Assembly: GCA_052168235.1 (NCBI GenBank)
Contig: JBQLZK010000009.1
Coordinates: 1-64,000 of the forward strand
DNA from: Thainema sp.
Lineage (GTDB): Bacteria > Cyanobacteriota > Cyanobacteriia > Phormidesmidales > Phormidesmidaceae
Direction of reading: 5' to 3'
Length of the DNA: 64,000 bases
Both the position numbers and the translations under genes were made by a program. Below, piece after piece: positions 39,789-49,652 of the stretch. Numbering within the stretch: position 1 is the stretch's first letter; each line of letters begins with the position of its first letter. A model generated the notes under the pieces. That model did no database searches, had not been told where the DNA came from, and saw only the letters and a program-made list of their open reading frames with translations.

Positions 39789-42700
39789 CTATGTGCCCAC
39801 TTCAGTCCGGCTACAGGTTGCAAGAGGCAGCTCTCGCCGGAGTATCGGGCATGACTCAATTGGGTGCTTGTCATGCCGGAAGGCTTCGTCAACGCACTCT
39901 CTCCGAAATATCTGACCAAACTGCACCCGGTCACCTATCTGCCAGCTCCGAGAATCGGGTGTAAAACAAGAATATAGAGCCTCAGGACTCTCCGTGTCCA
40001 TGATCTCTTGATTAGAAATTGGATCTCTAATAGAAATTGTGGACACCGATGCGGATAGCTTTTTTCTAACGGCCTGCAACAGCTTGAGGCGAAGAGGATT
40101 CTCCAAATCAGGAAGAGCATAACGGCGAGCCCGTTTTTGATCGCGACGGCCAGGACGACTAATCGCAACCACCTTTAGTCCTAAGCGCTTCACCAGTTTG
40201 TTGGCAATTTGGCAGGGTGTCTGCTCGGGGTTGATCGTGAGATTTAACCAATAACGCACTTCATGGATGAATCGAAGGGCCACCTGCTTGATGGCAATTG
40301 CTCGTTTGTCGTGATTTGTCCACGGCTTACCATCGAGCAGGTTGAGTACGCCCAATTTGGCAATGATGGCAGCTTTGACATAGCGTCTGGGCAGCTGGTG
40401 TGGAGCCCGAATCGAGCTAGCGAGAATGGTCTCCATGATTCCGCGATCGCAGTTCTTGACCGCCTCTAGATTCTCAGCCTGAGCCTGGAGCAAAACACCC
40501 CGACGCAGTGCCCCATAGTCGTTACACAACACCTCGTAGCATTCATCTACATCATTGAAGTCGATACCCGGAAATTCCGAACGGCACAGCACTTTATACG
40601 CAATCAGGCGAATCTCCCGGCTACTCTCCATGCCGTTTAGAGTGCGGTGCGCCCAGTCTGGAGTATGCCCCGCTTGCGGCTCAGCCTCAGCAATCTCAAG
40701 CGCCTCCTCGAACCAAATTTGCTTCTGTGTAGCATGCCACAGTTGGGCAGTCGCCTTGTGAGCCGAGACGGTCGCGGTCGTTACGCCATGGCCCGCACCG
40801 TCTAGACGATCGATTAAGGCAGCCTGAGCGATCGCTTTTTGGCTTCCACTCACGGTACGGGCCACCGTTAGATAATCAACGATAGCCGACTCCACTCCAG
40901 CGAGTGGATGATCGCGAGTTCCAATATCAAAGAGTCGCGCCAGCGTGATCAGGTTTTGGCTCAGGCGCTGTTTGATCGCGCGGGGACTGCCTAGTGCTTC
41001 CTCACCCGTGCCCGTGATGAAGGGCGGAATAAAAATCTGGCGCGGTACCGCCGGTCGATACCGACCCAGTAGTTGGAGATGGGTATCGGTGCTCAGGGCA
41101 GGGAAATAGGCCCACACTGCATCAAAATAAGCATCCTCAACCGCCACTTGCCCTTCAATGCTGACCCCTGATTTGGCACTCGGCGAGAGAATCAACACCT
41201 CCGGCTGATTGACCTGAAGCCACCGATCTGGGTCTTTGAAAAACAGATTGAAGGTCTCTCCTTCGTTCGTTTCTGAATCGATGCGAGTGGTACGGATGCC
41301 TTGACCCTGCAAAATGCGGTCGAGCCGCTTCGCTTCCCGTTGGGAGCTGGTCACCACCAACAAGCGACTTCCCTGCTCAATCCGATGGAGCAGACGCTGC
41401 CGAAAGCCAGAGGCTTGGCCAGAAAAGACGTGACAGTCCCATGAGATGCCGTGTTTACGGTGTTGGAAACAGCGCACAGCTAGGGATTCACTAATTGTCT
41501 GCCAGAACTGCACAGCCCGATTGGGGAGACCATCTTCGCTGAGAACAATCGCACCTCCCGAGGCGATCGCGTGCTTGGCAACACGGACAATCTGTTCCAG
41601 GATGGCTCCATAGCGGCTGTTGAAGGTATCTCCCTGGCAGATATGCTCGGTCACCTGGTTACCCTCATCGACGATCAAGACAACGGGCTTTGACCAGAAC
41701 CACTCTGGCAGCTTGCCAATGGAGTCAGGACACAACACGAGGCCAGGGCGCTGGCGGGCGGCGTTCCAAAAATCGCGCTGACGTTGACCAGTGGCTCCCT
41801 GATCATGGATATGGAGAATGCCCCAGTCTTGGGCGGTTTGCTGCCCCAGTGCATTCAGTGGTGAGAGCACTAGGACGTGTTTGTCTTCCGTCAGGGCAGT
41901 GTGTACCCAATCGCGCCCGATGCGGTAGGTTTTCCCAGTATTCATGGTGGCATCTACGACATGAATAACGCCTGGTGTCAGTTCGGGCAATGGTGGCAGA
42001 TAGGGGCCTTCAGTGCGTCGTTCAATTGGAAACGTGAGCGCATTGTGTCGGTGGATGGCATTGAGCGCAGCCGCGATCTGTCCGCTGCGTTTGTACTGTT
42101 TGAGCGTGGGAGCTGCGTTCAAAAGTTCATGGAGTCGCTCTGCCCCGGTCAACTGGCGGGCACGGTCTGGAATAGGATAGTCGCTCGGATCTTGATAGTG
42201 TTGATGCGATCGCACTAAGGGGCTAAATCCTTTGGTTACCTCAGAAGGCTGCTCTGACGTTTCAAGATTGAAGGTGTCCAAACTCCCTACGGCTTTCGCT
42301 GCGTTGGTATAGCGGTAGAGAACATCATCAATTCCTTTGCCCTCTTGCGGTTGCCAGATTGGACAGCGAACTTGGCAGCCGTGACGGTCTAGAACCTGAC
42401 CCAGTTGCTTGACCTGCCGGTGTACATTGGCAATCGTTCTGGGCTTGGTGTCTTGATCGAACAGAATGAACAGCCGTCTGCCCTTCGTCGCAAAGCGTTC
42501 AATGGCAGCGTGCAGTTGTAGGCTTCCTTTGACATGCCATTGAGTGATGCCGCGCACCGCGATCGCAGGAATGCCATGAGCAATTAGTGCAAGAGCTTTC
42601 TTGAGTCCTTCTGCGATCGCAACTGGCAGATTATTCTGTTCGACCACAGCCCAAAAATCCTGACCGGGTAAGGGAGTCACATCGTAGCGCTCGTAAATGG

Positions 42701-43118
42701 TGGCTGCCGTGATGTCATCAACACGAGGCACAATCGGCTCAGCTACAGCTCCCGGTGGCGTCTCATACTTGATGGTTTTACCGAGCTTGTGAGGATCGGA
42801 TCGCGGATGGAACGGTTTGGCATACGGGACGCCTTCGCGTGTACACCACATGCCATCCCGCAGTGGTTCATAAATCTTGAGCAGGCGCTGAACTCCGACC
42901 GTGATGTAGCTGGTGACCGTTTGGGACTGAGCGATTTTATCTTCTAGGATCGCTTGAATAGCATCGTCACCGGAGAGGATTTGGACATTAGCGGTTGTCA
43001 GTCGATCTGGAATAGCAGACTGTCGAAAATCTGCTAGCATCCAGTCCTCCAGTGACAGCAATGCTCGATCCGAGTTAGAGCAATAGCAGGCATTGCTCGG
43101 TGTCAATCTCTCGTTCAT
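39789..43118 (-). CDS. DUF3854/CyRepA1-type plasmid replication protein (TOPRIM-like primase plus helicase-like domain)
   Basis: N-terminal IKYETP, IAEGLKKA..L..G, LFDQD and KGIDD; Walker A-like TMNTGKT; VLIVDE. Confidence 0.85.
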   Translation of the reverse strand: MNERLTPSNACYCSNSDRALLSLEDWMLADFRQSAIPDRLTTANVQILSGDDAIQAILEDKIAQSQTVTSYITVGVQRLLKIYEPLRDGMWCTREGVPYAKPFHPRSDPHKLGKTIKYETPPGAVAEPIVPRVDDITAATIYERYDVTPLPGQDFWAVVEQNNLPVAIAEGLKKALALIAHGIPAIAVRGITQWHVKGSLQLHAAIERFATKGRRLFILFDQDTKPRTIANVHRQVKQLGQVLDRHGCQVRCPIWQPQEGKGIDDVLYRYTNAAKAVGSLDTFNLETSEQPSEVTKGFSPLVRSHQHYQDPSDYPIPDRARQLTGAERLHELLNAAPTLKQYKRSGQIAAALNAIHRHNALTFPIERRTEGPYLPPLPELTPGVIHVVDATMNTGKTYRIGRDWVHTALTEDKHVLVLSPLNALGQQTAQDWGILHIHDQGATGQRQRDFWNAARQRPGLVLCPDSIGKLPEWFWSKPVVLIVDEGNQVTEHICQGDTFNSRYGAILEQIVRVAKHAIASGGAIVLSEDGLPNRAVQFWQTISESLAVRCFQHRKHGISWDCHVFSGQASGFRQRLLHRIEQGSRLLVVTSSQREAKRLDRILQGQGIRTTRIDSETNEGETFNLFFKDPDRWLQVNQPEVLILSPSAKSGVSIEGQVAVEDAYFDAVWAYFPALSTDTHLQLLGRYRPAVPRQIFIPPFITGTGEEALGSPRAIKQRLSQNLITLARLFDIGTRDHPLAGVESAIVDYLTVARTVSGSQKAIAQAALIDRLDGAGHGVTTATVSAHKATAQLWHATQKQIWFEEALEIAEAEPQAGHTPDWAHRTLNGMESSREIRLIAYKVLCRSEFPGIDFNDVDECYEVLCNDYGALRRGVLLQAQAENLEAVKNCDRGIMETILASSIRAPHQLPRRYVKAAIIAKLGVLNLLDGKPWTNHDKRAIAIKQVALRFIHEVRYWLNLTINPEQTPCQIANKLVKRLGLKVVAISRPGRRDQKRARRYALPDLENPLRLKLLQAVRKKLSASVSTISIRDPISNQEIMDTESPEALYSCFTPDSRSWQIGDRVQFGQIFRRECVDEAFRHDKHPIESCPILRRELPLATCSRTEVGT

Positions 43119-43680
43119 GCTGTTCTATTCCTCTTATGGCACAGCAGGAATAGACCATTTCAGAGCACCATCAACGTTCACCTTTCGAGGCGGGTTGCCA
43201 TTTCTGAAAGGCGTGATAACATAGGCGCAATAGTTCTGTGAGCCATTCAAGATTCTGTTGATCCTGGCCTTGAATGTCCCTTACTGGTCTATTCCGAATA
43301 ATCTGATCCGCTCTAGCGGGCGTTTGGAACTCTGGTTGCTGGCCGCAATCAGAGTTTTTAGCGTTTAAATTGCGTCTCCACCTCTAAGTTGACAATGGCT
43401 CAGGTTTTCGCCCTGATCATACTTCACTTATCGATAAAGATAAAATTTATAGCGAGTATTAAGCTAATGACGATTTTTTATCGTTTATTTATTTAATCTC
43501 GTGTATTCGTTAAAGCTTTGCGCTGTGATCTCGATCAATTGGGACGAATAAGGGACTATAGAAAACACAGGGGTGCATGATGAGGCGTAAGGGCTCTTTG
43601 AGGGTTTGCTTGTGCATCAGCCTGCCATCTCGAATGACGTCGAGACCCCCTTTAGCCCAATGATTGTTAATCGTTTTGCC

Positions 43681-44271
43681 ATGACCAACCCGACTGAGTC
43701 GGATCCAATCCCAGACCCCACATCCGCAGAGGAAACCCGTGTCACCGAACGGCTTCGGATCAAAGATGCGTTTTTTGCCGCTATTGATGAGGCCGACGGC
43801 TATAAGGCCACTCAATTGGCAGAAGCCGCTGGTGTCACGGATGCGACCCTTTCTTTCATGAGGAATCAGGGACGAGATGTCCGGATATCGACCTTTCAAC
43901 GTCTCCTAGATGCCATGCCGACTGATGTCTACCTCCGGTTCTATCGAAATCTGGGGGCGGGTCTTGCTGATAATGCGTTGACAGACCCGGACACACCGCC
44001 CGACCGGATTATTTCAGCGCTCTTACATCTGTGCACGGATCAGCAGTTGATGGCTCTGGTTCAAGAATTAGGCGCACTGTCTAAAGAACGACAAAGCCAA
44101 GGCAGCAAAGTGATATCAATCCTGGTGTTGCTCATGGAACTGATGCAGTATTGCGAACTCGAAGACATCCCTGAACTGATTGGTAAAGTTGGAAAATACA
44201 CGTCCACTGCGATTCATCGCGCGTCGGACACTCGCTCTGAATCGGACACTCGCTCTGAAGCGCAGCCCTGA
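43681..44271 (+). CDS. XRE-type HTH protein divergent from rep
   Basis: YKATQLAEAAGVTDATLSFMRNQGRDVRISTFQRLLDAM. Confidence 0.65.
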   Translation: MTNPTESDPIPDPTSAEETRVTERLRIKDAFFAAIDEADGYKATQLAEAAGVTDATLSFMRNQGRDVRISTFQRLLDAMPTDVYLRFYRNLGAGLADNALTDPDTPPDRIISALLHLCTDQQLMALVQELGALSKERQSQGSKVISILVLLMELMQYCELEDIPELIGKVGKYTSTAIHRASDTRSESDTRSEAQP

Positions 44272-44492
44272 GCCGTTTTATACTGCAACTTGGCGCACTG
44301 AATCTCAATCTATGAGCAACTATCCAGTTGAATGGGGAACATTACTGGGAAAAAACGCTTCTGAATACCTTTGTGTTGTTTGTTGATACGCTCTTATCCA
44401 GAGTAAGAACCGTCTTGTGGCTCTATTGGGTATGACTCGGTGCAAGAGTGATGGTCACTTGCACATCATGCGGAAGGCGAATATCGCAGCCT

Positions 44493-44678
44493 ATGCAATT
44501 CGACGAATCAACATCTGCTGAAGCCGTCAATGATTTACTGCGACGGTTTGATGAGCTAACAGAAGACGAACAAACTGCATTCATTGAAGCGTTGATTCGA
44601 AAAGAAACAATTCAACGCATCATGAATCTTGTCTCAAGGTGCGCAAAAGCCAAAATTGATGAAATTCAGGATTCATGA
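44493..44678 (+). CDS. Small hypothetical protein
   Basis: Acidic, helical-looking ORF downstream of the HTH gene; start uncertain. Confidence 0.4.
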   Translation: MQFDESTSAEAVNDLLRRFDELTEDEQTAFIEALIRKETIQRIMNLVSRCAKAKIDEIQDS

Positions 44679-44938: not shown

Positions 44939-45415
44939 CTATTCACTTAACTGCGTTTCATCCGATTCCTTAAACACAGGATGCTTAATCAGGAATCGTG
45001 GCTCGAAGTAGAGGTAACATTCTGTCCAGCCTTGGCCGGGAATCAGGATTTGAGTCTTGTGTCCACTGCTAACTAAGTTTTTCAGTGAGGCTTGCCCAAA
45101 GCTGTAGGCACTGATGAACTGGTTGAGAGTTTGCTCAAACCAGTCCTTCAGCATGTCGATTTGCACCTTTTTGGGCTGTCCCCGATAAGGCACTTCAATT
45201 ACAGTCCCTTTGGCTAGGAACTCTTCGTCAATCACATCAACTTGCCAGCGTTGGTTACTGGGCAGTCTCGGCACTTCAGTTGCTTCAGTGGATTGTGATT
45301 CCGCTCTGGCCAGCTCGCCTTCGATTGCCCTGCGGCAAATCTCTGACCAGTTCAGATTTGCCTTATTCATCCGTGCCTTCAGTTCTTCGCTGACGTAGAT
45401 ATTGACGCTTGCCAT
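44939..45415 (-). CDS. Ribbon-helix-helix N-terminus fused to a KGK-like C-terminal domain
   Basis: MASVNIYVSEELKARM....NWSEICRRAI (RHH-like); C-terminal QILIPGQGW. Confidence 0.55.
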   Translation of the reverse strand: MASVNIYVSEELKARMNKANLNWSEICRRAIEGELARAESQSTEATEVPRLPSNQRWQVDVIDEEFLAKGTVIEVPYRGQPKKVQIDMLKDWFEQTLNQFISAYSFGQASLKNLVSSGHKTQILIPGQGWTECYLYFEPRFLIKHPVFKESDETQLSE

Positions 45416-46301
45416 TGATGATCTCTTAACTAATGTGCCTACATTTATCAGCATGTGGTTCAAATGCTATATGCGCATACTTGCAAGCATAGGCAGGATC
45501 AAAGCTGCATCGCCATATCTAGGCATCAAGACTTGGTGAAGCTAAGTCTGATTTGTGACCTGATTGTGCGATCGCAAAGTTGCAGCTCGATTTTGCTTAT
45601 TCCTCAAACTTTTCGATAATGTTTTTTGTACAGAGTAGAGAAAAATAATCTAGATCTGGAATGCCCTTGTTGCAAAGCCTCTAGAAATAGCTCATTTTTC
45701 TCTGCCCTATACCAAATATCATTACCTACTTTTCTTTATCAGTTCTTTATATAAAAAACAGATCTGTTTACGCCCACCTTACGTAGTGACGCATAACTTA
45801 AGGTTACAATCGGCACGTTTCCTACTTAGATGGTTGTGTTCAGAATGATCGTCCCTAATAGTTCTGAACGCTTCATAGCATAAACCGCCAGAGATTACAG
45901 GTACAACAAGCTTTTTGATTGTTATGAATATTACTACTGCGCTGCCTAGCGCTGCTTTGGGTGCTCTTGTTTTGGCTACTCCTACAAAGGCGGCTTGTTT
46001 TAAATTTTCATCTATCTTCCAAGCTCAAACAATTTTGACTGGGTTAATTGACGATGAATTAGACCCAGATGGAAACTATTTTTCCGCTGCCTCAATTCCC
46101 TTGACCGCGATCGCAAAGCAACAAGCTGCGAAACGCGACATCGCCTAATTAAATCAGCTGTATTTCATTCAGTCTTTGCATAGCTGTTGATCTGGGTAGG
46201 CCATCCATCAGCGGTCTATCCCGTCGTTGACGGTCGCTTTGCTATGCCCAATTTTGCTCCATTTGTCAGTCCTATTAATTGCGAAGGAAGTTAAGAGCAG
46301 C

Positions 46302-49300
46302 ATGAGTTTTGCACCTACCGACACCTCTGTTTTCACTGTCAACGGATTTCCTCAGCCTGATGCATCACCCTTGAATCCAGCGCTGATGCCATCTGATTTA
46401 TTGAGTCACTCTAGCTCATCCCCTGCTGCTAGTAGCTTAGTTGTCATCGATCCGACTGTTGAAGACGCTGCGTTCCTTGCTAACAGTGTTTCAGGGACTG
46501 ATGTTGTTGTGCTGGATGCTAACCAAGATGGCATTGAGCAAATCACCGCTCTCCTAGCAAACTACGAGCAGCTGTCTAGTCTCCACATTGTGTCGCATGG
46601 TGCTGTGGGACAGCTTCAGCTTGGCTCAACAGTCTTGGGTCTAGATACACTTCCACACTATGCTGAACAGCTCACTCAGTGGCAGGACAAGCTGAGCGAA
46701 GAGGCTGATATTTTGCTCTACGGCTGCGATGTCGCAGATGGCATCGTCGGGCGATCGTTTGTAGGGCAGCTTGGTCAACTGACTGGGGCGGATATCGCCG
46801 CCTCTAACGATCTTACGGGTAATGCCGCTTTGGGTGGTGACTGGGATCTAGAGTGGACAACGGGCGACATCGAAACCAACCTAGCCTTTGATGCAAATAT
46901 TCAGAACACGTATCAAAGCGTCTACAGCACGAGTGGAGGACTGGATGCACTATTGCTCATTGGCACCTCTAGTACAGAGCTAGAGGACTATACTGAGATT
47001 CGATATCGATTAGAGAGCCTGGGTTTTAGCGTTGTACAAAAGCTAGCATCAAGCCTCCAGCTTAGTGACACAACAGGGATGGAGCTAGTTGTTTCCGCTG
47101 CTTTTGGTGGAATTAGCATCTTGGACAATTTAGACCTGCCATTGATCGTGTTTAACGACAGTGTTGCTAAGCAGCTTGACATGGGTATTTGGAGCACTTC
47201 CGCACTTGGAGTCGGAGGCCGTACTCTCACAATTGAATCGACTGAGCCACTATTAACAGCTGGATTGTCGGGAGTGGTTAATATCTATGATCCTTCTGGA
47301 GGCTTGACCTATTTAGAACCCACTAGCAGTGCAATACGAGTCGGAACATTAGCTGAAAGGCCGTATACCACACCTGCGAATGCAACTCCAATCTTTGCTT
47401 ATGAGGAAGGTGCGGCTCTTTATAATGGTGAGTTCGCTCTAGCTCGGCAAGTCTCATTTTTGGGCTATACGCGATGGGTAAGTGATCTATCTAATCAAGG
47501 GTGGCAGCTCTTTGATGCAGCGGTTCAGTGGGCAATTGGGGAGCCAAGTGCTCCGGTTGAGATATCGCTTGCACTGAGCAATGATACAGGGGTCAGCGAT
47601 AGTGATGGTCTTACGGCTGACCCGACCCTTGCTGGACAATTAAGCACAGCCAACAACATCACTTCTTTGCAAGCGCGGATCGGCAATGGGCAGTTTGTTA
47701 GCGTCTTAGATGCTCTACAGTCTGATGGTACGTTCACCCTTGATTTAGAGCAGCTCAGTCACCTCAATGGCGGCGGTTTGGCCTACGGAAATTACACGGT
47801 TGAAGTTCAAGCACAGACTGCGGGTGGGTCAACTGACACCGAACTGATAGACTTCAGCTACGAGTTTCAGCAATCTGTACTTCCCTATAGCAATGGGGCA
47901 TTTGTGCCGCTGGAGCTTGCCGCTGGGCAAACCACATTTCAGTTTGGATTGCCGAACGATATTGCGAATGGGGATCAACTGCTGGTGTATCTCTTAAATG
48001 AGAACGATCCAACCGATACCCTCTTGGCCAATGGAGCTGAAGGTAATCCCCTGTTATCGGGCACTAACACCTACCTGTCCTACGATCCCAGCATTGTTAG
48101 TGTTAATACCGAAACGGTTACGGTTGATGTCTCTTCCCTGACGTCCGCCGAACTTGATTCGGCGATGGTCTACTTTGTAGTGTTCTCAGAATTTGACTCT
48201 CCCTCTGATGATCCGGACTACTACTCCTACGACGGTTATGGATGGGGCAGTGGTTTTGGATGGGGTGGCGGCGGTGGTGGCGGTGGTATCACCGACATTC
48301 AGTTTTCATCTCCGGGTTGGGCCACTACGGGTGATGGCAGTTCTGACCCTGATGATCCCGGCTCTGGCGGCAGTGGTTCAGCTCCAGATCCAGAGCCTCC
48401 AACCCGGCAGTTTTTGACGCAGCTGGGGGGAGATGGCTATTTCATCTCGTATGATTTGCTCGATGAAGACGATACGTTTACTAAACCGACTGAAATCAAG
48501 TTTGGCAACAACGTGCTCACGTTGAACTACTCAGATACGGGCGCATTTATCGGTAGCAGCAATGATGAACTCCTGGATGTGGTGCTCGCTTCGGTTGGAC
48601 TCACGAGTTTAGATATACTGGCGGCTGGAGAGATCCAATCTTCCGAAGCCAAGTCCTTCTTACCTTCGGCACAGACTCTTCAACTTTGGGATGTTTGGTC
48701 ACGTATTGGTGAAATTGCAATTAAACCCAACAAGGATTTTGATGTTTTTGCACAGGAAGAGCAAACAAAGCTTTTCGATTTTCAGGAAGACCTTCTGAAG
48801 AAAGCAAAAGTAATAGACAAATTTCAAGGCTATAAGGAGAATCAAGAGCAACTTCAAGCAATAGTTAAGTTAGGTAATGTTTACGCTGCACTTGATCCTC
48901 AAATCTTTGATACGGTAAATGATAAGCAACTTCAGGATGAGCTTGTTGCTGGCATCTTCCTCCGTACAGATGTTACTCCTGAAGAGGCTAGGGAAGAACT
49001 TTTAAGTTTTTTGAATACAGTCGATAGGAATGACTTTTTTACATCATTTTCTGGCGAGATACTAAGGTATGCTTTAGAGCAAGGTGTAAACCAAGACAAC
49101 CTTATAGCCGTTCATCCTCGGCGACCAACTGGACTACCGACTAGGAATGCACCAACCTTAGTATTTACCTCAGATTCAGAGTTGTCTCAGGCAGTTTTGG
49201 ATAGCGATCAATTTCAAAATGAAATTAAGACTCGGATTGGGTCGGTTTTGGAAGAGTATTCTCAGATATTATCTGACGGAGAAAGCGTAGTCGTTCCAAT

Positions 49301-49652
49301 ATCAGGTGAAGACGTTCCTCTAAATTATAGAGATGGCAGAGAAAAACTACAAACTCCAAGATTATCCGTTTCTTTGGGATTTGCTAATTATGACTTTACA
49401 GCTGACATAATGATAGAAAGGAGAGGACAGACTCTTGTTTTTGAGGCTAGATTTATTGGTTTAGGAGATGACTTTTATGACTTTAATGATCCAGGAACTG
49501 ATAATTTGTTAGATCCGTTTAACAGACTTGCTCGTGTTGCATACATTGCTCAGGAAGGACATACTCTGGCTGTTTTTGAGATTAATTTTGTTTTACAAAC
49601 AACCATAACTGGAGGTTATCCAATACCTTTCTCTCCTCCTGGAGACTTATAA
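46302..49652 (+). CDS. Large DUF4347 / Ig-like protein with a divergent C-terminal (colicin-M-like) domain
   Basis: DUF4347 motifs LHIVSHG, LLYGCDVA and IAASNDLTG...GGDWDLE; Ig-like LSNDTGVSDSDGLT.DPTL; Gly/Asp linker; C-terminal DDFYDFN. Confidence 0.8.
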   Translation: MSFAPTDTSVFTVNGFPQPDASPLNPALMPSDLLSHSSSSPAASSLVVIDPTVEDAAFLANSVSGTDVVVLDANQDGIEQITALLANYEQLSSLHIVSHGAVGQLQLGSTVLGLDTLPHYAEQLTQWQDKLSEEADILLYGCDVADGIVGRSFVGQLGQLTGADIAASNDLTGNAALGGDWDLEWTTGDIETNLAFDANIQNTYQSVYSTSGGLDALLLIGTSSTELEDYTEIRYRLESLGFSVVQKLASSLQLSDTTGMELVVSAAFGGISILDNLDLPLIVFNDSVAKQLDMGIWSTSALGVGGRTLTIESTEPLLTAGLSGVVNIYDPSGGLTYLEPTSSAIRVGTLAERPYTTPANATPIFAYEEGAALYNGEFALARQVSFLGYTRWVSDLSNQGWQLFDAAVQWAIGEPSAPVEISLALSNDTGVSDSDGLTADPTLAGQLSTANNITSLQARIGNGQFVSVLDALQSDGTFTLDLEQLSHLNGGGLAYGNYTVEVQAQTAGGSTDTELIDFSYEFQQSVLPYSNGAFVPLELAAGQTTFQFGLPNDIANGDQLLVYLLNENDPTDTLLANGAEGNPLLSGTNTYLSYDPSIVSVNTETVTVDVSSLTSAELDSAMVYFVVFSEFDSPSDDPDYYSYDGYGWGSGFGWGGGGGGGGITDIQFSSPGWATTGDGSSDPDDPGSGGSGSAPDPEPPTRQFLTQLGGDGYFISYDLLDEDDTFTKPTEIKFGNNVLTLNYSDTGAFIGSSNDELLDVVLASVGLTSLDILAAGEIQSSEAKSFLPSAQTLQLWDVWSRIGEIAIKPNKDFDVFAQEEQTKLFDFQEDLLKKAKVIDKFQGYKENQEQLQAIVKLGNVYAALDPQIFDTVNDKQLQDELVAGIFLRTDVTPEEAREELLSFLNTVDRNDFFTSFSGEILRYALEQGVNQDNLIAVHPRRPTGLPTRNAPTLVFTSDSELSQAVLDSDQFQNEIKTRIGSVLEEYSQILSDGESVVVPISGEDVPLNYRDGREKLQTPRLSVSLGFANYDFTADIMIERRGQTLVFEARFIGLGDDFYDFNDPGTDNLLDPFNRLARVAYIAQEGHTLAVFEINFVLQTTITGGYPIPFSPPGDL

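Follow-up and report, generated by a model that had tools for sequence, protein, structure and literature searches.

A putative two-state RNA switch, set by an antisense RNA, in the leader of a CyRepA1-like rep gene from Thainema sp.

Background

The control of plasmid replication in cyanobacteria is little known, and a rep gene found in a 64,000-nucleotide (nt) stretch of Thainema sp. DNA (GenBank assembly GCA_052168235.1, contig JBQLZK010000009.1, positions 1 to 64,000; the whole stretch is called the window hereafter) raises the question of how synthesis of its product, a DUF3854/CyRepA1-like replication protein (Rep), might be adjusted to copy number. The rep leader contains three short segments, here called A, B and C, of which B is complementary to both A and C, C includes most of the ribosome binding site (RBS), and A is covered by a putative transcript running opposite to rep. 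A sequence-only reading of the window had proposed that this counter-transcript masks A, forces the leader into a fold in which the RBS is closed, and sets copy number as antisense attenuation does in pT181 and pSK41 plasmids. From the comparison of homologous leaders, structure prediction and in silico masking reported below, the rep leader is probably, though by no means certainly, an RNA switch with two states, between which a cis-encoded antisense RNA decides. Plasmid copy control of this kind is well known; the form proposed here is without an earlier description in this replicon family.

Results and discussion

Competing pairings at the ribosome binding site

A scan of species-representative genomes yielded 31 rep loci. 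Six of these (L001, L002, L003, L004, L007 and L005) have a recognisable form of the leader, and their Reps are 90-65% identical to that of the window. Leptolyngbya sp. PCC 6406, Halomicronema sp. CCY15110 and Almyronema epifaneia S1, all cultured strains, are among the carriers. An nhmmer profile of the leader retrieves these seven loci (the window included), a weak match in L009 (E 0.0058), and nothing else. In the seven-locus alignment the first rep codons are less conserved than the leader. Counts given below as cells refer to one base pair in one locus, scored as standard pair or not, on each strand.

On the minus strand TCTATTCCT (43154-43146), within B, is the exact complement of AGGAATAGA (43132-43124), which is C, and the two form a hairpin of 9 base pairs (bp) with a 13-nt loop. 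The AGGA of the Shine-Dalgarno (SD) sequence lies within the stem, its first G (43133) outside. In a shifted register TGGTCTATTCC (43157-43147), also within B, is the exact complement over 11 bp of the upstream segment GGAATAGACCA (43295-43285), which is A, and an inverted-repeat search agrees. The hairpin at GAGGA and the perfect complementarity of an upstream 11-mer to its 5' arm had thus both been read correctly from the bare sequence, and to the exact position. The competing A-B and B-C pairings, which exclude each other, are found in 7 of 7 loci.

The A-B helix (11 pairs) is 97.4% paired over the seven loci, with two pairs changed on both sides, and is used in the consensus fold computed by RNAalifold. 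Position 11 of the helix is occupied by A-U in two of the loci and by G-C in four, while L004 has A.C. In L005, A, B and C have changed in concert, GGAATAGG occurring twice along with CCTATTCC; 8 bp of the A-B helix are kept in this locus, plus two beyond a mismatch. The B-C helix is paired in 63 of 63 cells, a single pair, in L005, being changed on both sides.

When the segment 43116-43421 was shuffled 1000 times preserving dinucleotides, a perfect inverted repeat of at least 11 nt arose in five shuffles, and an 8-mer A/B/C triple located at the RBS in none. It is therefore hardly credible that an ordinary intergenic region acquired the repeats and the promoter-like site by chance. Inverted repeats of short length are frequent, and the promoter scan taken alone is at chance level; yet the shuffle counts, the conservation of the leader in seven loci above that of the first rep codons, the covariation just described and the strand asymmetry described below all argue otherwise, and Rep identities of 65-78% speak against conservation from recent common descent.

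A predicted antisense RNA gene opposite rep

The promoter-like sequence which the sequence-only reading had placed on the strand opposite rep, TTGCCA-N16-TAACAT with an extended TG, is found by the promoter scan, and its layout is identical in 7 of 7 loci: a -35 box TTGC(C/T)A, a 16-nt spacer, TGn, and a -10 box TAA(C/T)AT. Transcription is predicted to start around 43229, at an A located 7 nt past the -10 box, and this base is found at that spot in all seven loci. The predicted RNA comprises a 5' stem-loop I (43244-43276), a spacer containing UGGUCUAUUCC, a small CCGC/GCGG hairpin of 4 bp (43308-43319), and a terminator. UGGUCUAUUCC is the sequence of B, and comes from the same bases which, on the other strand, make up A.

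Stem-loop I corresponds to the hairpin called H2 in Table 1. Its stem is invariant in six loci, and in L005 a stem of another sequence takes its position. No part of the leader varies more than the 17-nt loop (43252-43268); variation of this sort would be expected of a loop that sets antisense-target (incompatibility) specificity.

The terminator hairpin is found in all seven loci about 100 nt downstream of the promoter, and consists of 13 bp plus a 3-bp outer stem, followed by U-runs. It is paired in 91 of 91 cells on the antisense strand and in 73 of 91 on the rep strand, because G.U pairs, the positions of which differ between loci, read A.C on the other strand. In alignment A5 the helix is 100% paired, with two pairs changed on both sides and five on one. 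Predicted energies range from -19.0 to -22.3 kcal/mol on the antisense strand vs. -11.5 to -14.2 kcal/mol on the rep strand, the hairpin being 5-8.5 kcal/mol stabler on the antisense strand in each of the seven loci. The two hairpins that had been reported at 43243-43276 and 43318-43366 are therefore present, at 43244-43276 and 43321-43363; the "many" G-U pairs attributed to the second were overstated, three G.U pairs on the plus strand of the window corresponding to A.C mismatches on the minus.

Taken as a whole, the antisense RNA is paired in 96% of 251 cells in alignment A5, controls in which partners were slid giving 29-47%. Both strands fold better than shuffled sequences (z -3.57, 0/100 shuffles; z -3.49, 0/200 shuffles, the latter for the antisense RNA), and model R1, built for the antisense RNA, matches all seven loci at 70.6-163.7 bits. 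We predict from these comparisons a conserved gene for a short structured antisense RNA opposite rep. It matches no family of Rfam 15, where no match at gathering score was obtained for the 64-kb window; the single match of 43050-43700 (mir-214, E 0.96) is attributable to chance.

Structure of the rep-strand leader

Between A and B lie two helices with the opposite strand preference. Of the 70 cells of H3, 68 are paired on the rep strand and 52 on the antisense strand, and the hairpin is stabler on the rep strand in 7 of 7 loci; double changes affect four of its ten pairs, and the -35 box of the antisense promoter lies in its loop, which is invariant. Hmid, which closes the H3 domain, is paired in 34 of 35 cells vs. 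23 of 35. As some helices pair well on the rep strand only (H3, Hmid) and the terminator hairpin pairs fully on the antisense strand only, both transcripts appear to be under selection.

The open structure, in which the SD is free, is paired in 91.6% of 395 cells in alignment A3, slid controls reaching 32-42%. With shuffled partners 87.3 +/- 0.6% of cells are paired and 0 of 500 shuffles attain the observed value, and 13 pairs are doubly changed vs. 4.2 +/- 1.4 in the shuffles (0/500), counts to be read with caution, since among related sequences such shuffles may be outdone even where no structure exists. Because kinship can have this effect, the opposite strand preferences of neighbouring helices are the stronger argument.

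A frame of 22 codons, MAHRTIAPMLSRLSEMATRLER, extends over 43178-43246 of the window on the minus strand and starts at an ATG within the 3' arm of H2. A frame of 21-22 codons starts there in 7 of 7 loci, including L005 despite its different stem sequence. Variable positions in the seven-locus alignment number 4, 9 and 8 at codon positions 1, 2 and 3, with no bias for the third; the frame closes 45 nt short of the SD and 60 nt short of the rep ATG, and in four of the seven loci an SD-like AAGGA is found ahead of its start. The frame is treated as incidental. Were it translated, it might serve a purely cis-acting switch having no need of an antisense RNA, and responding to translation of the 21-22-codon frame, to temperature, or to a bound factor. 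The rep strand does have a conserved structure of its own, the frame is kept even in L005, and coupling to a leader peptide is known from IncFII and IncB/IncI plasmids. We give this alternative little credence, as it leaves idle an antisense promoter and an antisense-specific terminator kept in 7 of 7 loci, and as the frame has no coding signature (4, 9, 8), stops well short of the SD, and is preceded by AAGGA in some of the loci only.

Further features were noted upstream. The hexamer TATGAT, which may be the -10 box of rep, ends an AT-rich block conserved in six of the seven loci (alignment A2), the promoter scan making no call there. The region 43400-43500, between the divergent genes, is AT-rich (GC content 0.28), with a perfect palindrome, TTATCGATAA, at about 43428-43437. 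This region might be a promoter or operator of rep, or an unwinding element of the origin. An SD-like GGAGGTG (GAGGTG in the window) is found in six of the seven leaders at about 43379-43385 (minus strand), just 5' of the antisense target, and is not followed by a start codon. A perfect 9-nt inverted repeat, 43239-43247/43394-43402 (TGAGCCATT / AATGGCTCA), connects, on the rep strand, the far 5' leader with the sequence flanking H2 on its 3' side; the aligned leaders of the relatives, with about 100 nt inserted at the site of the upstream arm (43394-43402), showed no copy of it.

The proposed switch

The rep mRNA would begin upstream of 43295. While it is being synthesised, A would pair with B and close a domain containing H2, Hmid and H3, and this pairing would keep the SD free, so that Rep is translated. 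A constitutive extended -10 promoter on the other strand would direct the synthesis of an RNA of about 140 nt ending at the hairpin and U-tract. Fully complementary to the leader segment containing A, the antisense RNA would pair with the leader and withdraw A; the freed B would then pair with C, AGGA would be enclosed in the 9-bp stem, and translation of Rep would fall. The B sequence carried by the antisense RNA would compete with B for A, and could also pair over 8 nt with the SD arm directly. As the dose of antisense RNA follows that of the plasmid, negative feedback on copy number would result. We infer that both RNAs are made and meet as a duplex in the cell, that control is exerted on translation, and that Rep is the rate-limiting factor.

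The positions of the elements suit this model, which is that of the sequence-only reading: the antisense target takes in A and leaves out B, C, Hmid and H3. Each leader was folded free, and again with the antisense target made unpairable, and the probability that AGGAA of the SD is paired was read out. On masking it rose from 0.14 to 1.00 in the window and in L001, from 0.22 to 1.00 in L002, from 0.38 to 0.98 in L004, and from 0.34 to 0.99 in L007, so that in five of the seven leaders the SD shifts in silico from mostly unpaired to paired; the corresponding values are 0.80 and 1.00 in L003, 0.97 and 0.98 in L005. Promoter, terminator, A-B covariation, the concerted change in L005 and simulation thus lend support to the core of the earlier interpretation; the analogy with pT181 does not survive (see below).

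Several results weigh against the switch, or temper its support. The leaders of L003 and L005 are predicted to be closed at equilibrium even when the antisense RNA is absent, and in the simulation the 5' end of the leader was arbitrary and kinetics were ignored. The seven sequences represent about four lineages, which limits every comparative count, and paired-cell counts overstate the number of independent events. Eight of the nine B-C pairs are invariant, and the score of this helix was reached by 73 of 500 shuffles; the case for B-C is made by conservation and by the change in L005, not by statistics. The covariation across homologous leaders which the sequence-only reading had proposed as a check is seen in A-B, and almost no independent covariation is seen in B-C. 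The promoter scan alone is at chance (one site vs. 1.5 +/- 1.3 in shuffles), and its sole promoter-like site is the antisense one, none being called for rep. A strict terminator scan of 42900-43800 returned no sites; it missed the antisense terminator because the first U residues pair with the base of the stem, and the hairpin is called on the antisense strand under a looser rule in which terminal A-U pairs are allowed as tail. Exact 7-mer A/B/C triples were sought in 14 distant rep loci and in plasmid pSYSA of Synechocystis 6803, with 0 of 15 convincing and one doubtful triple in L028; all of four positive controls were detected, and L009, L014, L023, L024 and L025, where the start codon is unclear, were left aside. 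Lastly, A-B and B-C are made up of Watson-Crick pairs only, and are therefore uninformative as to strand, having the same look as DNA repeats.

The last point bears on a different explanation, according to which the three leader copies of GGAATAGA are DNA sites, operators or iterons, for Rep or for the helix-turn-helix (HTH) protein possibly encoded by the divergent gene, the RNA pairings being a by-product; the plus-strand promoter may then simply serve the HTH gene, giving it a long leader in which the hairpin acts as attenuator. GGAATAGA is over-represented in the window (6 copies vs. 1.6 expected, three of them within the leader), the pairings are equally good on both strands, the concerted change of all copies in L005 is also predicted by a model of protein sites, and the HTH gene is syntenic and divergent in five of the six relatives. 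Such DNA sites are nonetheless a distinctly improbable explanation. A and B share 11 nt, C only 8-9 nt in another register; the A-to-C spacing is 163-164 nt in six loci and 176 nt in L005; GGAATAG shows no enrichment ahead of the 19 distant rep genes and of pSYSA slr7037 (in these 20 loci, 2 copies in 10,600 nt upstream of rep vs. 16 in 202,966 nt elsewhere); and the helices nested in the A-B domain are specific to the rep-strand RNA. Differing registers, variable spacing, lack of enrichment and RNA-specific nested helices together weaken the DNA-site explanation, and the antisense-set switch is retained as the preferred one.

Reach beyond the close relatives

Model R1 was run against 33 sources totalling 364,905 bases. 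Besides seven strong matches, weak ones were obtained on the antisense strand of L010 (24 bits, E 0.0076), L009 (E 0.096) and L022 (E 0.18). They lie 250-500 nt upstream of rep (L009 4603-4772, L010 4471-4561, L022 4635-4755) and consist of a hairpin and U-run opposite rep genes whose products are 46-53% identical to Rep of the window; in L009, TTGCCA-N16-CATAAT is found about 110 nt upstream of the hairpin. Of 26 loci scanned for terminator-like hairpins over the 600 nt preceding rep, 15 have such a hairpin on the antisense strand and 5 on the rep strand, figures which become 9 and 4 of 20 when the six close relatives are set aside; a control made on coding regions is also skewed (7 antisense vs. 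1 sense). Since the control is skewed, and the proven antisense RNA of pSYSA scored none, this test of strand bias is insensitive and not decisive. The distant matches are suggestive, and should be taken as a lead, not as a result.

A broader claim would be that the window provides the first representative of a copy-control RNA family, as yet uncatalogued, which serves CyRepA1-like replicons in filamentous cyanobacteria. We advance it tentatively, as a possibility more doubtful than the switch itself. Through a single-stranded spacer bearing the 11 nt of B, the antisense RNA would mimic this anti-SD element, compete for A, and be able to pair over 8 nt with the SD arm, while incompatibility specificity would depend on the hypervariable loop of stem-loop I. 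If the claim is true, the matches in L009, L010 and L022 and the hairpins in 9 of 20 distant loci are diverged members.

The rep gene and its neighbours

The coordinates of the features discussed are collected in Table 1. The rep ATG (43118-43116, minus strand) is the first start past an in-frame stop located 9 nt upstream. In the six close loci the frame opens just 6 nt ahead of the ATG, in a layout like that of the window, and tblastn alignments of Rep reach residue 1 in all but L005, where they start at residue 23. Frame opening and alignment starts therefore agree with the start codon chosen in the sequence-only reading.

Table 1. Positions of the rep gene, of leader elements and of predicted antisense features in the window
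Feature	Position	Strand	Basis or remark
rep, 1109-aa (amino acid) DUF3854/CyRepA1-like primase-helicase replication protein	39789..43118	-	open reading frame list, PF12965 match
Element C, AGGAATAGA, 3' arm of RBS-closing hairpin	43132-43124	-	inverted repeat with B
Shine-Dalgarno GAGGA	43133-43129	-	10 nt before rep ATG
Element B, TGGTCTATTCCT	43146..43157	-	pairs with A via 43157-43147 or with C via 43154-43146
Hmid, 5-bp helix closing H3 domain, 43228-43224 with 43169-43165	43165..43228	-	strand counts
H3, rep-strand-specific hairpin	43179..43213	-	strand counts, stability, double changes
Antisense promoter, TTGCCA-N16-TGaTAACAT	43195..43222	+	promoter scan, conservation in seven loci
Predicted antisense RNA, ~140 nt	43229..~43368	+	fold, alignment, model R1
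H2 / stem-loop I, 8-bp stem (43244-43251/43269-43276), 17-nt loop	43244..43276	both	inverted repeat, alignments
Element A, GGAATAGACCA	43295-43285	-	11-nt complement of B, inside antisense target
Terminator-like hairpin and U-tract	43321..43366	+	complete on plus strand only
TATGAT, possible rep -10	43416..43421	-	read from sequence; inference only

Rep contains a DUF3854 domain (PF12965, E 7e-33), and is matched by NCBIfam model NF042913 (CyRepA1) over positions 5-593 of 595 (171.1 bits, E 4.7e-50), below the curated cut-off of 200 bits for membership in the family. Among 227 homologs, those bearing a name are DUF3854 proteins or "plasmid replication protein, CyRepA1 family", and come from filamentous cyanobacteria; homologs 45-49% identical to Rep carry the CyRepA1 family name. 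The protein is called CyRepA1-like since it scores under the cut-off of NF042913, yet has the DUF3854 domain and homologs named CyRepA1. Its nearest homologs, for instance P0001 (93%) and P0002 (78%), are known from metagenomes only. A blastn search of PLSDB with 42600-44300 gave no matches, and a tblastn search with Rep residues 1-500 gave 212 records, all below 60% identity, the best at 34.1%, so that PLSDB offers no close plasmid with annotation.

The divergent gene (43660-44271, plus strand) has a weak match to HTH_3 (19.6 bits, under the cut-off). It probably starts at the ATG at 43660, because alignments begin at residue 18-19 of the listed frame. This gene and a 76-aa open reading frame (ORF; 44448-44678, plus strand) are syntenic with rep in L001, L002, L003, L004 and L007, and the HTH gene may encode a CopR-like second regulator or a partition factor. 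Two more ORFs adjoin the replication module, one of 174 aa (44939-45463, minus strand) with a weak match to the CcdA antitoxin (19.5 bits, under the cut-off), the other of 1141 aa (46227-49652, plus strand) with a glycine run.

Comparison with known copy-control systems

Antisense RNAs directed against a rep leader that carries a short ORF are found in IncFII (CopA/tap) and IncB/IncI-alpha (RNAI/repY) plasmids, where long-range RNA pairing sets the opening of the rep RBS. In these plasmids the ORF of the leader runs up to or into the rep start and has to be translated, whereas the 22-codon frame described here stops 60 nt before the rep ATG and lacks a coding signature.

As regards the Rep family, the closest comparison is with pSYSA. 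In the literature searched on CyRepA, DUF3854, CyRepA1 and plasmid antisense control, no RBS switch was found for this family, and antisense control of a CyRepA1 gene is treated only in the pSYSA paper (PMC9978351). According to that paper, an abundant 153-nt antisense RNA with three stem-loops, asRNA1, is made upstream of slr7037 (CyRepA1), overlapping the 64-aa gene ssr7036; both strands of the region are transcribed, and ColE1-like primer control with RNase E cleavage is proposed, priming taking place in the spacer before slr7037 (PMC9978351). The proposal is repeated in PMC10899382. The predicted module resembles that described for pSYSA in having the same or a neighbouring Rep family, and an RNA of about 150 nt with three stem-loops on the opposite strand, upstream of rep. 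A module of the pSYSA type was considered for the window and set aside, as there is no counterpart of ssr7036, and the rep-strand leader frames have only 19-38 codons, the shared one being without coding signature. Model R1 found no match on pSYSA (L032) up to E = 10, nor was the A/B/C triple found there.

The antisense RNA could be real but act as in ColE1 or pSYSA, the rep-strand transcript being a pre-primer or a substrate of RNase E/RNase III, the antisense RNA controlling its processing or stability, and the RBS hairpin being secondary; such a role could coexist with the switch. The findings on pSYSA, the sole CyRepA1 replicon studied, speak for this alternative, its antisense RNA of about 150 nt overlapping the upstream transcript and priming and RNase E cleavage being proposed (PMC9978351), as do the three stem-loops predicted here as well and the AT-rich stretch just upstream (GC 0.28). 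We consider it unlikely, given the want of an ssr7036 counterpart and of coding signatures in the leader, the failure of model R1 on pSYSA, and the fact that the complementarity of B to both A and the SD arm, along with the joint change in L005, would be left unexplained. In pSYSA itself three segments, at 485-501, 759-775 and 831-846 of L032, are of note: the C-rich CCCTCCCTGC is 90% complementary to the G-rich RBS region of slr7037 and 71% complementary to the start region of ssr7036, inverted repeats of 71-90% complementarity surrounding the slr7037 RBS. pSYSA may have a three-element layout of its own, one which goes unmentioned in the parts of PMC9978351 used here.

Attenuation of the pT181/pIP501 type was rejected: the B-C hairpin is followed by ACAGCAUG, with no U-run, and no terminator-like site is present on the rep strand in 42900-43800, nor, under the looser rule, in the 600 nt upstream. 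Since the induced hairpin has no U-tract and the rep strand no terminator, the effect is predicted to be on translation, not on elongation. Of the two analogies drawn in the sequence-only reading, the one with pT181 attenuation hence falls, while the translational mode of pSK41 fits. What the predicted system would share with pT181 and pIP501 is a counter-transcript binding the rep leader, and refolding near the rep start. In pIP501 a gene for an HTH_XRE repressor lies upstream (review PMC5703833), the counterpart here being the divergent gene with its weak HTH_3 match.

Induction of RBS sequestration by an antisense RNA, as in the staphylococcal RepA_N plasmid pSK41, is the best reading of the mode of action that the analogy allows. 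The review PMC5703833 describes an RNAI of about 83 nt, made of stem-loops joined by a single-stranded spacer, which binds about 100 nt upstream of the rep translation start, leaves the RBS uncovered, and induces an RBS-sequestering stem-loop. Likewise, the predicted target lies upstream of the RBS, its near end (43229) being 96 nt from the SD. Unlike pSK41 as there described, the RNA is about 140 nt long, bears no sequence relation to RNAI and has no Rfam match, and the element freeing the RBS is an explicit 11-nt complement, repeated within the antisense RNA; Rep family (DUF3854/CyRepA1-like vs. RepA_N) and host phylum are unrelated. The proposal is directly testable, because homologous leaders reside in Leptolyngbya sp. 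PCC 6406, Halomicronema sp. CCY15110 and Almyronema epifaneia S1. If true, it would provide a new RNA family with comparative support, and a handle to tune copy number and compatibility of vectors based on this Rep clade, and would mean that translational control through RNA structure, in the manner of pSK41, has evolved in a replicon type unrelated to it.

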